Virus record (IMG/VR): IMGVR_UViG_3300033146_002435
Location: 4,818-68,817 of that record
DNA length: 64,000 bases
Direction: 5' to 3' (one strand)
Origin: a virus
Below, piece after piece: positions 24,933-29,260 of the stretch. The first letter of the stretch is position 1, and the number at the start of each line of letters is the position of its first letter. A model generated the notes under the pieces. That model worked only from the letters and a program-made list of their open reading frames with translations. It searched no databases and was not told the DNA's origin. The position numbers and the translations under genes were made by a program.

Positions 24933-25798
24933 GCCGCATCCACCGCCACAGCCGCAGCCGCAGCCGCATCCGCATCCACCGCCACAGCCACAGCCACCGC
25001 CACAGCCACAGCCACAGCCACAGCCGCAGCCACAGCCACAGCCACAGCCACAGCCGCATCCACAGCCACAGCCACAGCCACAGCCACAGCCACAGCCACA
25101 GCCACAGCCGCATCCACAGCCACAGCCACAGCCACAGCCGCAGCCACAGCCACAGCCACAGCCGTAGCCAGACCACAGCCACAGCCGCAGCCACAGCCGC
25201 AGCCACAGCCACAGCCACAGCCACAGCCACAGCCACAGCCATAGCCGTAGCCACAGCCACAGCCACAGCCACAGCCACAGCCACAGCCACAGCCGCATCC
25301 ACAGCCACAGCCACAGCCACAGCCACAGCCACAGCCGCATCCACAGCCACAGCCACAGCCACAGCCACAGCCGCATCCACAGCCACAGCCACAGCCACAG
25401 CCACAGCCACAGCCAGACCACAGCCACAGCCAGACCACAGCCACAGCCAGACCACAGCCAGACCACAGCCACAGCCAGACCACAGCCACAGCCAGACCAC
25501 AGCCAGACCACAGCCACAGCCAGACCACAGCCAGACCACAGCCACAGCCAGACCACAGCCACAGCCACAGCCAGACCACAGCCAGACCACAGCCAGACCA
25601 CAGCCACAGCCAGACCACAGCCAGACCACAGCCACAGCCAGACCACAGCCAGACCACAGCCACAGCCAGACCACAGCCACAGCCAGACCACAGCCACAGC
25701 CAGACCACAGCCACAGCCAGACCACAGCCAGACCACAGCCAGACCACAGCCACAGCCAGACCACAGCCGCAGCCACAGCCAGACCACAGCCACAGCCG
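24933..25798. repeat. microsatellite array 1: (GCCACA)n with GCCGCA/TCCACA variants and GCCAGACCACA 11-mers
   Basis: Directly visible, ~865 bp. Confidence 0.97.
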
Positions 25799-25800
25799 AT

Positions 25801-26468
25801 TTACACATGAACTGGATATAAAACAATATCTACGCTATCACAGGCACATGCTTTACATTTGCCACATTTCACTTTTTTTGCCGTTTTTTCCGATATTGCG
25901 GGACAAACAACTACGGATAAACCCTTTGTTCTCAGCAACCCTTTGTTCTCAGCATTTTAGCTTCCATGGTCGCCTGGACGATGCGATGTTTTAGCGGCTT
26001 GCGTAGATCACCGACCACACGGGATTCGCGATAGCCCTTGTATTCCTCTTGATTTGATAATCGAGTGGGGAAACCCATATTTCTGTACGCTAAATATTTA
26101 CTAACCGTTTCGACCGGAAAATGAACTAATCCAGACTGGATTTTTGGGATCAGTTTTTTTGCGATGAGCTGAAGAATTTCTTTTTGCTCATTGTTCAGTT
26201 CAGAAAAAGATGGAAACGATCCAAATGATGAAAATCTGATCCACGGACACGACTGTAAATCATTCATTATAGACAAGATCCCGAATAGAAACCCAGTGAA
26301 GTCATCTGAGTGTTTCCGGAGAAATGGGTTAAGATCTTTATACTTTTTTGCCTTGGAATTTTTGTGAAATGGGCAATTCTTCGAGCAAAATTTACCGGAA
26401 CCCTTACACGCATTTAGTGCGATTGAGTTTTTACATCCCTTGCTGAATGTAGACTTTATGTTCATCAC
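25801..26468 (-). pseudogene. Cys-rich GP88-like protein interrupted by a 17-bp tandem duplication
   Basis: Removing one copy of ACCCTTTGTTCTCAGCA (25921-25954) restores a 216-aa ORF ending VVCPA...KCGKCKAC...IVLYPVHV. Family assignment is from recalled motif pattern. Confidence 0.7.
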
Positions 26469-26695
26469 ATTACCTCGAAAAGTTCGGAAAATTGTTGAAA
26501 GTGGAGCTCAACGTACTGAGCTAAAAAAGTTACGAAGTTAATGTGATATGTGTATCTGTGGAGTTGCTCCATAATCTCAATATCCATCAAGTCGATTATA
26601 GTGTTTTTTCGTGCCATGATAACTAAGCTCACAGCATATCTAGTTGTATTTTTGTAGCCTTTTTTTGCCAATTCTTCCGTTAAATTTTTGTTCAT
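26465..26695 (-). CDS. hypothetical early protein
   Basis: AAGGAG RBS, coupled to neighbours. Confidence 0.7.
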   Translation of the reverse strand: MNKNLTEELAKKGYKNTTRYAVSLVIMARKNTIIDLMDIEIMEQLHRYTYHINFVTFLAQYVELHFQQFSELFEVM

Positions 26696-26964
26696 TTTGT
26701 ACTCCTTAAAACTTGCTCTGTTTGCCCGTACACACGTATGTGTTCAGAGTCGTATTCACGTACTCTCATAACATGATTTGGGAATTTTTTTATCATAATT
26801 TTTTTAATTGACTCTGTTGATATACTACAATTTAAATCGATGTAGATTGTGTTTCCCTTATCTTCGTATCCGTAACCCGCAATATGAGGTTGATATTTCA
26901 TGATACGAGTGATATTTTTGAATTTTGTCATTAATCCTGTTTTTTGTCTTTCTGTAAATTTCAT
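26692..26964 (-). CDS. hypothetical early protein
   Basis: AAGGGA RBS, coupled to the next gene. Confidence 0.7.
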   Translation of the reverse strand: MKFTERQKTGLMTKFKNITRIMKYQPHIAGYGYEDKGNTIYIDLNCSISTESIKKIMIKKFPNHVMRVREYDSEHIRVYGQTEQVLRSTK

Positions 26965-27011
26965 TTCCCTTAATCCCTTATTTTTTATTTTGTCTTGTCT
27001 TGTTTGGAGCC

Positions 27012-27057
27012 AAAAAAAAAAACCCGATCAACTCCAGTGGAGTTGATCGGGTTTTTT
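27012..27057 (-). terminator. strong intrinsic terminator-like hairpin (bidirectional form)
   Basis: A-run, CCCGATCAACTCCA-G-TGGAGTTGATCGGG, T-run. Confidence 0.8.
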
Positions 27058-27059
27058 GA

Positions 27060-27248
27060 CTAGATTTGCTTTCGCATGTGACGCATTACCCAACGTAAGG
27101 GACGTTTTTTACGCAATACATGTATCCCCTTGCTGTCGTTACAATTACATAGCCACTCACGGTATACGACACTTGTCGGTGCCATTTCTTTACGGTTGCA
27201 GTCATTTATTGCTCTCACTATTATCTTCGCTATCTTTTTCTTTTTCAT
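27060..27248 (-). CDS. small basic hypothetical protein
   Basis: 62 aa, GGAG RBS, ATGA-coupled. Confidence 0.6.
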   Translation of the reverse strand: MKKKKIAKIIVRAINDCNRKEMAPTSVVYREWLCNCNDSKGIHVLRKKRPLRWVMRHMRKQI

Positions 27249-27607
27249 TTTGTACTCTCCAAAATTGATTCTAACTGTTCTACGTCTTTGTCAGTAAAAA
27301 CGTGATTTGCATCATCTAAAAAATCGAATTCGTGACCGTTCAAACGATCGTTTTTTTTCAGTTTGAGCAAGAGAAAATTTACTCTATTGTCTATCTCATC
27401 TTGCTTTGCTCTCATACTCTCATCCCGCAATTTTTTACGCTTGTTCTTTGCATTTTCGCACGAATGAAATTCGTTTCTGGGAACCCAGAGAATACCGTGG
27501 AATTCTACGGGATAGTATGATCCATTTTTGGACTGCAACAATGCTATCTGGCAGTCACATTTTTTACATCGTTTTATTTGCCAATTTTTTACTTTGACAT
27601 AGTTCAT
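27245..27607 (-). CDS. hypothetical zinc-finger-like protein
   Basis: ATG 27607 after a G-rich RBS; CKKC...NGSYYPVE...HSC. The track ORF extends through the terminator, which is unlikely. Confidence 0.65.
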   Translation of the reverse strand: MNYVKVKNWQIKRCKKCDCQIALLQSKNGSYYPVEFHGILWVPRNEFHSCENAKNKRKKLRDESMRAKQDEIDNRVNFLLLKLKKNDRLNGHEFDFLDDANHVFTDKDVEQLESILESTK

Positions 27608-27640
27608 TTCCCCCCCCTTTTTTTTCCTTTGTTTGGAATC

Positions 27641-27681
27641 AAAAAAAAACCCGGTCAATCCCAAGGGATTGATCGGGTTTT
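27641..27681 (-). terminator. intrinsic terminator-like hairpin, paralog of 27012-27057
   Basis: A-run, CCCGGTCAATCCC-AA-GGGATTGATCGGG, T-run. Confidence 0.75.
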
Positions 27682-27684
27682 CGA

Positions 27685-28089
27685 CTAAATTTGTACGTAT
27701 CCTCTGATCCACGCATCCTGAACTCTCTGTGCGTTTGCGGGATATACGCTTTGTTCGGGGTTGCTAATCTCCATGATTCCGTCGGTCAGCACCACGTAGA
27801 CCGCCGGATCGAAGCTTTTGTTTTCGGGGTTGACCAAAACTGTATGATTTTTTTTCAGTTTGGAGATGAGCTCCTGAACTCCGGAAAGTTTTCCGTCGGA
27901 AAGCAATTCTAAGGCAAAAAAAGACTCAAGAGCTAATCTCAACGTAGCTCTTTCTTCCAACACTACCATATATTCATAACGGGTTTTCTCAGAGAGAAAT
28001 AAAAACAGCTCATGAGCTGTTTTTTGGTCGAGATGGTCTGCCATGACCACCTCATCCGAAAATCGGATTACCTTGTATTCTTTTTTCAT
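27685..28089 (-). CDS. hypothetical early protein
   Basis: AGGAG RBS; first gene after the promoter at 28159. Confidence 0.75.
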   Translation of the reverse strand: MKKEYKVIRFSDEVVMADHLDQKTAHELFLFLSEKTRYEYMVVLEERATLRLALESFFALELLSDGKLSGVQELISKLKKNHTVLVNPENKSFDPAVYVVLTDGIMEISNPEQSVYPANAQRVQDAWIRGYVQI

Positions 28090-28130
28090 CTTGTGCTCCT
28101 GTTTTTTATTTACCCTTGCGGGATAATGCT

Positions 28131-28159
28131 AATATACATTCATTTTTTTGTTGTGTCAA
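28131..28159 (-). promoter_or_regulatory. strong sigma70-type early promoter
   Basis: TTGACA-17 nt-TATATT (TG just upstream of -10). Confidence 0.8.
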
Positions 28160-28260
28160 GAAAAAAATGAAATTTATTTGACATAACAAGCTGTGAAACG
28201 TGTAAACCGTTGGTAACACTCATTTTTCGATTAAAAGTTTTTTTTGTTTGATTGTTTTTT

Positions 28261-29260
28261 CGTGCCTGCGTGCCTGCGTGCCTGCGTGCCTGCGTGCCTG
28301 CGTGCCTGCGTGCCTGCGTGCCTGCGTGCCTGCGTGCCTGTCTGTCTGTCTGTCTGCTGCCTGCTGCCTGCTGCCTGCGTGCCTGCGTGCCTGTCTGTCT
28401 GTCTGTCTGCTGCCTGCTGCGTGCCTGCTGTCTGCCTGCTGCCTGCTGCCTGCTGCCTGCCTGCTGCCTGCCTGCCTGCTGCCTGCTGCGTGCCTGCGTG
28501 CCTGCGTGCCTGCGTGCCTGCGTGCCTGCGTGCCTGCGTGCCTGCGTGCCTGCGTGCCTGCGTGCCTGCGTGCCTGCGTGCCTGCGTGCCTGCGTGCCTT
28601 GCGTGCCTGCGTGCCTGCGTGCCTGCGTGCCTGCGTGCCTGCGTGCCTGCGTGCCTGCGTGCCTGCGTGCCTGTCTGTCTGTCTGTCTGCTGCCTGCCTG
28701 CCTGCCCACCTGCCTGCCCACCTGCCTGCCCACCTGCCTGCCCACCTGCCTGCCCACCTGCCTGCCTGCCCACCTGCCTGCCTGCCCACCTGCCCACCTG
28801 CCTGCCTGCCCACCTGCCCACCTGCCTGCCTGCCCACCTGCCCACCTGCCCACCTGCCTGCCTGCCTGCCTGCCTGCCTGCCTGCCTGCCTGCCTGCCTG
28901 CCTGCCCACCTGCCTGCCTGCCCACCTGCCCACCTGTCCACCTGCCTGCCTGCCTGCCTGCCCACCTGCCCACCTGCCTGCCCACCTGCCCACCTGCCTG
29001 CCTGCCTGCCTGCCCACCTGCCTGCCCACCTGCCTGCCTGCCTGCCTGCCTGCCTGCCCACCTGCCTGCCCACCTGCCTGCCCACCTGCCCACCTGCCTG
29101 CCCACCTGCCCACCTGCCTGCCCACCTGCCTGCCCACCTGCCTGCCTGCCTGCCTGCGTGCCTGCGTGCCTGCGTGCCTGCGTGCCTGCGTGCCTGCCCA
29201 CCTGCCTGCGTGCGTGTGCCTGCGTGCGTGTCTGTCTGTCTGCTGCGTGTGCGTGCGTGT
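28261..29260. repeat. microsatellite array 2: mosaic of CGTGCCTG, CCTG, TCTG, CTGCCTG and CCCACCTG units
   Basis: Directly visible, ~1 kb. Confidence 0.97.

Follow-up and report, generated by a model that had tools for sequence, protein, structure and literature searches.

Phage genomes are tightly packed, and the simple-sequence repeats found in them are normally tens of bases long. The uncultured viral record IMGVR_UViG_3300033146_002435, a linear contig of 68,817 nt rated 43% complete, contains two tandem arrays of 867 and 1000 nt that bracket a cassette of six small genes, and these arrays are the subject of the present analysis, which covers a stretch of 64,000 nt (bases 4818-68817 of the record, hereafter the window). 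Our best reading of the arrays is that they are hyper-expanded members of a known, poorly understood class of prokaryotic repeats, the long simple-sequence repeats (LSSRs). As to their role, the account that we favour, and to which we give an even chance, is that they are greatly expanded intergenic repeats at the borders of transcription units around a swappable cassette, where they would act both as spacers and as recombination substrates.

According to the summary of Mrazek, Guo and Shah (2007) contained in PMC4679880, LSSRs are built of units of 1-11 nt, occur sporadically in prokaryotes and are ascribed to polymerase slippage; the same summary describes them as mostly intergenic when the unit length is not a multiple of 3, and their function as mostly unknown. 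The arrays of the window share with them the head-to-tail arrangement of 4- to 11-nt units, a length beyond that expected by chance and a non-coding nature. They differ in that units of 4, 6, 8 and 11 nt are mixed within one tract, in that they are carried by a phage, and in their size of 0.87 and 1.0 kb, which is five or more times that of any comparable tract in the collections searched. A further parallel is drawn from the Beggiatoaceae, whose heptamer (STRR-type) repeats and TAACTGA direct repeats form 'morphing' arrays of short units in the spacers at gene and operon borders, much as in the window (PMC4679880). These repeats are said to vary in copy number between relatives and to be carried by phages as well; their units measure 7-8 nt, their tracts range from tens of nt to a few hundred, and one genome has them at many loci. 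The window, by comparison, has two loci only, none of the heptamers, kilobase size and an extreme asymmetry of base composition.

Borg extrachromosomal elements carry, in the description of their repeats given by PMC9879509, rapidly evolving and recently formed tandem repeats across the whole genome, which often produce disordered protein regions. The window shares with them the fast-evolving tandem repeats typical of a mobile element, but has just two arrays, both non-coding. In T4-type phages, shuffled early genes are bounded by PeSLs, promoter/stem-loop units that act as 'mobile regulatory cassettes'. The likeness to the present locus lies in repeated non-coding sequence that borders small early ORFans and offers homology for modular exchange, and the window indeed has repeated GATCAA...TTGATC terminator hairpins and near-identical promoters; the difference is that PeSLs are promoter-plus-hairpin units of unique sequence, tens of nt long, and not simple-sequence arrays.

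Anatomy of the two arrays

Array 1 (24933-25799, 867 nt) and array 2 (28261-29260, 1000 nt) were delimited from the sequence itself, from Tandem Repeats Finder (TRF) and from base composition. TRF reports array 1 at 24940-25797 with a period of 6 (CCACAG), 147.3 copies and a score of 1149, and array 2 at 28263-29243 with a period of 4 (TGCC), 248.8 copies and a score of 973, while no other repeat of the window scores above 345. Zone 1 of array 1, which extends to about 25410, consists of the hexamer CCACAG and its variants CCGCAG, CCGCAT, CCACCG, CCGTAG and CCATAG, and in zone 2 (about 25411-25799) the 6-nt CCACAG and the 11-nt CCAGACCACAG are mixed without a fixed period; the minus strand of the array thus reads (CTGTGG)n. 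Blocks of TGCCTGCG, TGCC, TGTC, TGCTGCC and TGCCCACC units make up the mosaic of array 2, in which a higher-order block, made of a TGCCTGCG run followed by TGCC, four copies of TGTC and TGC-TGCC, is seen three times. The parsed unit lengths across the two arrays are 4, 6, 7, 8 and 11 nt.

All six reading frames are open and interchange along the arrays, whereas a coding repeat would have a period that is a multiple of 3 and keep one frame. Because units of 4, 8 and 11 nt break any reading frame, the arrays are non-coding, and they are cis features that chance does not account for. They fill two spacers. Array 2 occupies the gap between the promoter of the cassette and a promoter that directs transcription rightward, and array 1 sits between the last cassette gene and a terminator-like hairpin, followed by an AT-rich block that precedes the promoter of the left arm. 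The orientation of the genes confirms that the arrays bracket the six-gene cassette at a strand switch, as the first-pass annotation of this DNA had stated, with minus-strand genes to the left of 28100 and plus-strand genes to the right of 29700. Four promoters that match the consensus at 11 of 12 positions stand out in our promoter scan, among them the cassette promoter and the rightward promoter.

Strand asymmetry and physical properties

On the plus strand, array 1 is rich in C and A and has almost no T (C 420, A 277, G 159, T 11), and array 2 is rich in C and T and has almost no A (C 457, G 270, T 241, A 32). The T-free interval 25377-25799 and the A-free interval 28261-28707, both noticed at first inspection, are exact and belong to the longest such runs of the window, of 423 nt (25377-25799) and 456 nt (28252-28707); outside the arrays, T-free runs reach at most 42 nt and A-free runs at most 75 nt. 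The 'opposite polarity' that had been attributed to the arrays therefore holds for A versus T, and hence for CTG versus CAG, and fails for G versus C, since C exceeds G on the plus strand of the one array as of the other, the C/G ratio being 2.64 in array 1 and 1.69 in array 2. Within this general trend, array 1 contains 48% C and 18% G and the TGCCCACC zone of array 2 contains 57% C and 18% G, while the C/G ratio of the TGCCTGCG zone is 1.0.

The trinucleotide CTG occurs 0 times on the plus strand and 134 times on the minus strand of array 1, and 171 and 0 times, respectively, in array 2, so that its reported presence on opposite strands of the two arrays is absolute. Base composition alone produces this asymmetry, because one array is practically without T and the other practically without A. 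When eight 150-nt tiles were folded as single-stranded DNA and compared with dinucleotide shuffles, seven folded no better than the shuffles (z from -0.29 to +6.14) and one was marginal (z -1.90); all four tiles of array 2 folded worse than every one of 200 shuffles. The predicted energies of the C-rich strands range from -0.4 to -4.4 kcal/mol per 150 nt as DNA and from -2.9 to -12.5 as RNA, where the shuffle means lie between -16 and -24. Since their single strands fold no better than shuffled sequence, the arrays are not hairpin-forming repeats of the CTG/CAG type. Canonical G-quadruplex motifs (four runs of three or more G, with loops of 1-7 nt) are absent from both strands of the arrays, and loops of up to 12 nt add only 4 motifs; it is only on the minus strand that two-tetrad G2 motifs are frequent, with 38 in array 1 and 30 in array 2, compared with 28 in the remaining 62 kb. 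The arrays are, in short, strand-asymmetric and structure-poor tracts.

The enclosed cassette

The six minus-strand genes between the arrays have a GC content of 36-40%, compared with 42-47% in most other 1-kb bins of the window. They follow a consensus-like promoter, TTGACA-N17-TATATT, which matches at 11 of 12 positions and lies at 28159-28131 on the minus strand, in agreement with the distance of about 100 bp from array 2 given for it earlier. The open reading frames (ORFs) and family searches define, in the direction of transcription, gene 1 (27685-28089, 134 aa), gene 2 (27245-27610, 121 aa, containing Cys and His), gene 3 (27060-27248, 62 aa, basic), gene 4 (26692-26964, 90 aa), gene 5 (26465-26695, 76 aa) and gene 6 (25801-26468). 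Genes 1 to 4 belong to no known family, and searches of PHROG, of phages by tblastn and of the Atlas gave no usable lead for the cassette proteins. Pfam offers nothing for them beyond a match of gene 5 to the anti-CRISPR family AcrIC5 (E 2.4e-4), which at 21.6 bits lies below the cut-off of 27 and is only a hint that the cassette might be an anti-defence module. Neither PHROG nor Pfam searches found a DNA-binding domain in any of the cassette proteins. Two terminator-like hairpins lie within the cassette on the minus strand, one at 27017-27057 with 19 pairs and a T run, of the intrinsic type, and one at 27650-27672 with a related GATCAA...TTGATC stem.

Gene 6 is truncated at 25932, after 178 aa, by an exact 17-bp tandem duplication (25921-25954). 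Removal of one copy in silico restores a protein of 216 aa whose stop codon starts at 25801, 2-3 bp from array 1, as had been anticipated for the restored gene. The restored tail contains five Cys and one His and fits the conserved C-terminal CxxCxxC...YPxH end of the homologues, of which there are 54, typically 220-250 aa long. Among the 28 that were aligned, 23 match DUF7227 (PF23872), and we assign gene 6 to this family. Its earlier identification as GP88 (PF17338) was not borne out: the protein has no Pfam match at E<=0.1, BLASTP against a true GP88 gives an E of 5.2, the profile-protein comparison a probability of 0.7%, and the comparison of the family profile with that of GP88 a probability of 5% (E 0.008). 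Taken as a whole, the six small ORFan early genes look like an exchangeable accessory module.

Assembly evidence and a related strain

The arrays are probably real. Every 127-mer within them is unique (741 of 741 in array 1 and 874 of 874 in array 2), so the assembly path needs no repeat loop walked twice; the longest internal repeats measure 99 nt in array 1 and 106 nt in array 2. At the borders of the arrays stand a stop codon, terminators and promoters that match at 11 of 12 positions. The window contains no adapter-like word, even when 3 mismatches are allowed.

A related strain, about 90% identical, is present in the public run X1, where the evidence consists of contigs and not of reads. 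One X1 contig of 422 nt covers 28159-28290, from which it differs by 5 substitutions and a deletion of 16 nt. It takes in the flank and 30 nt of array 2 and places the array-2 junction of the relative where the window has it; its remaining 306 letters do not align to the window. The pieces of the cassette recovered from X1 are 88-94% alike and are adjoined on either side by unlike sequence, a sign of mosaicism, and the cassette stretches without X1 cover are not to be taken as evidence of absence. In the same run, a pure TGCCTGCG 38-mer reaches a depth of 1475, compared with 21-27 for the flank records, and a 47-nt word from zone 2 of array 1 is present without mismatch at a depth of 40.6. For the relative of the window's phage, copy-number data consist of these depth ratios and of the one junction contig. 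The share of sampled words in X1 is 0.24, a figure that cannot be apportioned between array and flank, and the runs X2 and X3 contain almost none of the words. In all three runs there are records of exactly 151 letters, which suggests that they derive from short reads.

Rarity of comparable arrays

With the window's own record excluded, pattern scans of IMG/VR found (CCACAG)6 in 86 contigs, in low-complexity tracts of at most 157 nt (median 91), which bears out the earlier remark that long simple repeats are very rare in phage genomes. A 36-nt TGCCTGCG run occurs in 2 IMG/VR contigs, and neither the TGCCCACC/TGCC 20-mer nor a 41-nt word of array 1 occurs in any; a 28-nt word from zone 2 of array 1 likewise has no match among the metagenome contigs. 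In species genomes, the TGCCCACC/TGCC 20-mer gave 22 single matches, mostly in high-GC actinobacteria, which we treated as chance or coding. Protein baits translated from ORFs of the arrays returned 59 matches for array 2 (7 inspected) and 6 for array 1 (4 inspected), and all those inspected were of low complexity only and partly eukaryote-like. Twenty metagenome loci contain a TGCCCACC/TGCC 24-mer, in tracts that do not exceed 196 nt. The kilobase size of the two arrays is therefore extreme among the collections searched. These catalogues are biased against such arrays, because short-read assemblies usually break at longer perfect tracts.

A second element built of the same units

Four of the 20 metagenome loci, on three contigs (L095, L107, and L094 together with L109), represent a single element of 2.2 kb, whereas the other 16, for which tract length and similarity to the window were checked, show no similarity outside the arrays. 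The element is composed, in this order, of a TGCCCACC/TGCC array, a gene for a 71-aa protein, a GP88 gene, a terminator, a spacer of about 250 nt, another TGCCCACC/TGCC array and a (CACATG)n tract. The GP88 gene is bona fide (Pfam, E 3.9e-38), and the whole can be described as a GP88 cassette of one or two genes with TGCC/TGCCCACC arrays on either side. The number of units is clearly polymorphic among the three contigs: the upstream array has 4-5 TGCCCACC and 4-7 TGCC units, and of the downstream array, together with its 21-nt leader, one contig has a single copy and another has two. Two of the contigs carry the 71-aa gene and the third lacks it, owing to a 254-nt indel (L095 203-456 versus L107) that is bounded by a near-repeat with the ribosome-binding region, AACTT(T)AACCGTAAA; judged from its sequence, this is the gain or loss of a gene cassette at repeated translation-start signals.

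Beyond the upstream array of the element lie a divergent 10-of-12 promoter and a gene pointing away, the same layout as at array 2, and no consensus promoter was found for the GP88 cassette itself. Both of its arrays have the same polarity, with CTG on the same strand, and they are inverted relative to the neighbouring genes when compared with the window, the C-rich strand being the sense strand of the cassette here and the opposite strand there. The expectation that CTG polarity would be conserved wherever such arrays recur is thus not supported, and the second element leans towards random polarity, with the reservation that its kinship to the phage of the window is not shown. Its flanks have no similarity to the window by blastn or tblastx, and a 29-nt word taken from it is not in IMG/VR.

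A third case concerns DUF7227 homologues, which are encoded at six IMG/VR loci. One of these, from another uncultured phage (L180, 2264-2745), has two arrays just past the end of its DUF7227 operon, the first of 12-mers (330 bp, TGTACCGTGGCT type, 27 copies) and the second of 16-mers (76 bp). They are enclosed by a terminator and a strong promoter, TTGACT-N17-TATACT, whose -35 hexamer the 16-mer array abuts. The core CYGTGGC is common to the 12-mer unit of this locus and to the minus strand of array 1, in both cases on the coding strand downstream of a DUF7227-family gene. This is the only one of the six loci with an array longer than 120 nt, two others having 29-nt repeats downstream, and the association of arrays with DUF7227 genes is accordingly weak. 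An association with GP88 genes was considered and rejected, as at none of 37 GP88 loci does a short-period array adjoin the gene; the sole short-period array among them is a 70-nt CAC repeat elsewhere in L135.

Genomic surroundings and lineage

To the right of array 2, and directly after it, a terminator-like hairpin with 6 G-C pairs and a T run (29305-29333, plus strand) precedes the rightward promoter, TTGACA-N17-TATAGT (29345-29373, plus strand, 11 of 12 positions). Between this promoter and an HNH-like gene (29724-30155, plus strand; phrog_374, E 1.3e-13) lies a 30-bp repeat that TRF finds at 29475-29671 on the plus strand, with 6.6 copies and 97% matches. It is a candidate iteron region or origin, or else a structured leader, and a more conventional one than the arrays; a 19-nt part of its unit is found again at 22183-22201. 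The next gene encodes an RdgC-like protein of 419 aa (30156-31415, plus strand; Pfam RdgC, E 4.6e-4; phrog_724, E 2.1e-9), for which no pattern match was found in IMG/VR and a word-based search of 5.8 billion protein clusters returned the protein itself alone. A protein of this kind without relatives underlines the isolation of the phage lineage. The right arm continues rightward with a terminase and a 2312-aa protein, while the left arm, read leftward, encodes a DNA polymerase A, a 5'-3' exonuclease, a helicase, a 1024-aa protein matched to the PHROG 'primase' and others. ORFs of 2312, 1024 and 915 aa run uninterrupted in the contig.

At the other end of the locus, a terminator-like hairpin lies directly before array 1 (24888-24912, plus strand), and just past the array on the minus strand another hairpin with a GGATCAA/TTGATCC stem (24826-24884) can be read from the sequence. 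The loop of the latter is a short simple repeat, (TA)5(GTGC)5, so that it looks as if a small array had been seeded within a terminator. GATCAA...TTGATC stems are common to this hairpin and to the two within the cassette (27017-27057 and 27650-27672).

Comparison with other phages gave little. Megablast of positions 20000-34000 against 50,697 phage records yielded no match, and the terminase and the DNA polymerase share no more than about 27-29% identity with those of cultured phages. The whole genomes of Vibrio phage 51E28.4 and Acinetobacter phage Mystique contain no tandem array longer than 93 nt, and they are too distant to count as syntenic relatives. An Rfam search of 20000-33000 returned nothing relevant, and no tRNAs were found.

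Origin and function of the arrays

In the account that we favour, the arrays belong to the LSSR kind and would have grown to about 0.9 and 1.0 kb by replication slippage and by unequal exchange, in which both single units of 4 to 11 nt and larger blocks took part, processes that could explain their mosaic structure. They fill the two spacers that separate three transcription units, and they would turn over fast, so as to differ between relatives. Their likeliest effect would be passive and independent of orientation: they may keep strongly transcribed units apart, as spacers or insulators, and may offer long tracts of low-information homology at which related phages could recombine and swap the cassette. 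The alternative mentioned in the first-pass annotation, that these are recombination arrays, is viable and forms part of this account.

Several points weigh against it. No array-bounded swap of the cassette has been observed directly, and in the second element it is another direct repeat, and not the arrays, that delimits the gene-sized indel. The TGCC/TGCCCACC vocabulary occurs in two elements with dissimilar flanks, which hints at selection or transfer at the level of the motif and finds no explanation in a purely passive model, and the size of the arrays is far above that of any others found (157 nt in IMG/VR, 196 nt at the metagenome loci and 330 nt at L180). If these 1.9 kb were useless, one would expect a compact phage to have shed them, and this speaks for some selected function. 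On the side of the data, the TGCCTGCG word with a depth of 1475 could stem in part from other DNA, given that ORFs of the TGCCTGCG type occur in eukaryote-like records; only inner junctions have been placed, on X1 contigs, and the length of the arrays in this phage is without read-level proof.

The size of the arrays and the recurrence of their units consequently leave room for a selected function, be it a Rho-loading insulator, a protein-binding array or the control of a nuclease, although even when these are combined we regard such a function as rather unlikely. In the same measure unlikely, to our mind, is the broader idea of selected, strand-specific 'landing strips', with which the arrays would close off a swappable early cassette. 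The structure-free C-rich strand and its G-rich complement may then be read by a machine that tracks single strands. On RNA this could be Rho and on DNA a RecBCD-type nuclease or a primase/helicase; a dedicated protein that binds TGCC/TGCCCACC and CYGTGGC is a further candidate. If this were true, finding the units again in an unrelated element would point to a portable class of phage cis-element that is new, and not to junk.

Among the specific functions, an insulator based on Rho fares best, and we still consider it improbable. Rho prefers RNA that is C-rich, G-poor and unstructured. A plus-strand transcript of an array would then be a giant rut-like tract at which rightward transcription stops, insulating the cassette and the divergent promoters, while the G-rich leftward transcripts pass. 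The composition fits for array 1 and for the TGCCCACC zone of array 2, whose plus-strand RNA is, by computed composition and folding, C-rich, G-poor and nearly without self-structure. Only four plus-strand tracts of the 64 kb have at least 40% C and at most 20% G, and the sole long ones are the two arrays; the plus-strand terminator-like hairpins just before array 1 and just after array 2 also agree with a barrier to rightward transcription. The TGCCTGCG zone, with as much G as C, does not fit, there is no sign of plus-strand transcription of either array, and no 9-of-12 promoter points into them, weak matches aside. Moreover, about 80 nt would be enough for Rho, which leaves a length of 1 kb unexplained, and the second element has the opposite arrangement, with the C-rich strand as sense strand of its cassette.

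A hardly stronger doubt attaches to an assembly artefact, that is, to the arrays, or their kilobase length and internal order, being present in no single phage genome and resulting from a de Bruijn graph that was walked wrongly, from alleles mixed together or from long-read basecaller junk. Repeat junk of this type exists in nanopore data. One of the two IMG/VR contigs that contain the TGCCTGCG 36-mer, L006 (16,619 nt), carries within positions 1-1100 two copies of a 21-nt sequencing-adapter-like word, which we take to be a nanopore adapter; the second copy runs directly into about 800 nt of TGCC/TGCCTGCG/GTGC repeats, which join GC-rich and AT-rich DNA. This contig is very probably a chimeric long-read artefact within a public viral catalogue, so that such cases do exist in IMG/VR, and PMC8486125, in its treatment of nanopore errors, does not describe repeat junk of this kind. 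The record of the window is itself an uncultured linear contig of limited rated completeness, no spanning reads were seen, and its longest internal repeats fall just below a typical top k of 127, which fits 'just resolvable' as well as 'assembler-shaped' sequence. The signature of the nanopore artefact, an adapter at the repeat border and absence from short-read data, is nevertheless not what we found: the window has no adapter-like word, its long ORFs are intact, and a contig of a different strain crosses the junction in X1, where the 151-letter records point to short reads. In addition, no 127-mer is used twice, the borders fall exactly at a stop codon, promoters and terminators, and three separate metagenome assemblies show a cassette bordered by the same units in differing copy numbers.

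We think it quite unlikely that the arrays are iteron-like, that is, made of degenerate sites to which a protein of the phage or of the host binds, perhaps a product of the cassette itself, which would make them sinks, nucleation sites or partition-like sites. The recurrence of TGCC and TGCCCACC units in an unrelated element, the CYGTGGC core that array 1 (minus strand) shares with the 12-mers of L180 downstream of DUF7227-family genes, and the contact of the 16-mers of that locus with a -35 hexamer would all suit such a role. It is hard to reconcile with the many different units that coexist and drift inside each array, with periods of 4 to 8 bp, which are short for protein sites, and with the cassette proteins, in which no DNA-binding domain was found; nor do arrays regularly accompany the genes in question, being longer than 120 nt at one of six DUF7227 loci and adjacent to the gene at none of 37 GP88 loci.

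The model put forward in the first-pass annotation, in which the arrays are paired pads of primase-recognition sites and primers laid down on them converge across the cassette to become the leading strands of a bidirectional origin, now appears very unlikely. E. coli DnaG primes at CTG, and the arrays resemble its sites, or single-strand initiation signals, in presenting a strand-specific trinucleotide on an unstructured template strand. The CTG bias is absolute, the geometry of the model is self-consistent, and the arrays lie at the strand switch, next to the 30-bp repeat array and an AT-rich block. The bias, though, is fully explained by base composition, both arrays have the same G/C polarity, and the second element, with CTG on the same strand at both ends, does not keep the polarity logic. 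Known primase sites are single or few, and not kilobase arrays. The 1024-aa candidate primase matches the PHROG 'primase' only, with no Pfam family at E<=0.1 and no PDB relative; since it has no DnaG-type domain, the CTG rule of E. coli DnaG is not transferable to it. GC-rich tracts of 1 kb are, besides, poor substrates for unwinding, and more ordinary origin candidates adjoin, namely the 30-bp repeat (6.6 copies, 29475-29671) and a gene-free AT-rich block of 1.2 kb.

Skew analysis, which had been suggested as a check on this model, went against it. The minimum of the cumulative GC skew lies at 31043 with the arrays included and moves out of the region, to 18624, once they are masked, because the skew is positive in 19000-24000 despite the minus-strand genes there. 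The minimum of the AT skew, at 29346, falls on the rightward promoter at the strand switch and tracks transcription or the promoter, so that skew does not point to the cassette. Of the proposal that the arrays constitute a dedicated cis-acting system, what stands is that they are non-coding cis features in the spacers of transcription units; the paired priming pads and the bidirectional origin are not supported.

Most unlikely of all those weighed is a Chi-like role, in which the G-rich minus strand would carry tandem near-copies of the RecBCD/AddAB site, switch the host nuclease from degradation to recombination and protect the DNA on one side. The minus strand of array 2 has 31 copies of GCAGGTGG, also present in the second element, which differs at 1 of 8 positions from the Chi octamer of E. 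coli, and the minus strand of array 1 has 101 copies of GCTGTGG, the same octamer minus one G, on the same strand as GCAGGTGG. The exact octamer, however, occurs nowhere in the 68.8-kb contig, most units (TGCCTGCG, TGTC and CCAGACCACAG) are unlike Chi, and a match of 7 out of 8 among so many G-rich 8-mers is only mildly unlikely, at a few percent by a rough estimate. Subterminal telomere-like arrays, also suggested at first, fail because of position, the arrays lying at 29750-34077 of the 68817-nt contig (rated 43% complete), 29.7 and 34.7 kb from its ends, and a general rule of R-loops formed with a G-rich non-template strand was rejected on account of the opposite arrangement of the second element.

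Significance

The two arrays amount to 1.9 kb, or about 2.7% of the contig, kept in a genome whose size is limited by the phage head. That they survive there suggests either a very strong drive to expand, which would be telling of the replication and recombination machinery of the lineage, or usefulness. Real arrays of this kind are probably underestimated in viral catalogues, because such tracts break short-read assemblies and can be mistaken for artefacts, for which L006 provides an example. Position matters as well, in that the arrays exactly border a cassette of ORFan early genes and that the same units surround a different cassette elsewhere. If the arrays promote the exchange of modules or insulate transcription, they would represent a simple and portable mechanism for phage mosaicism.

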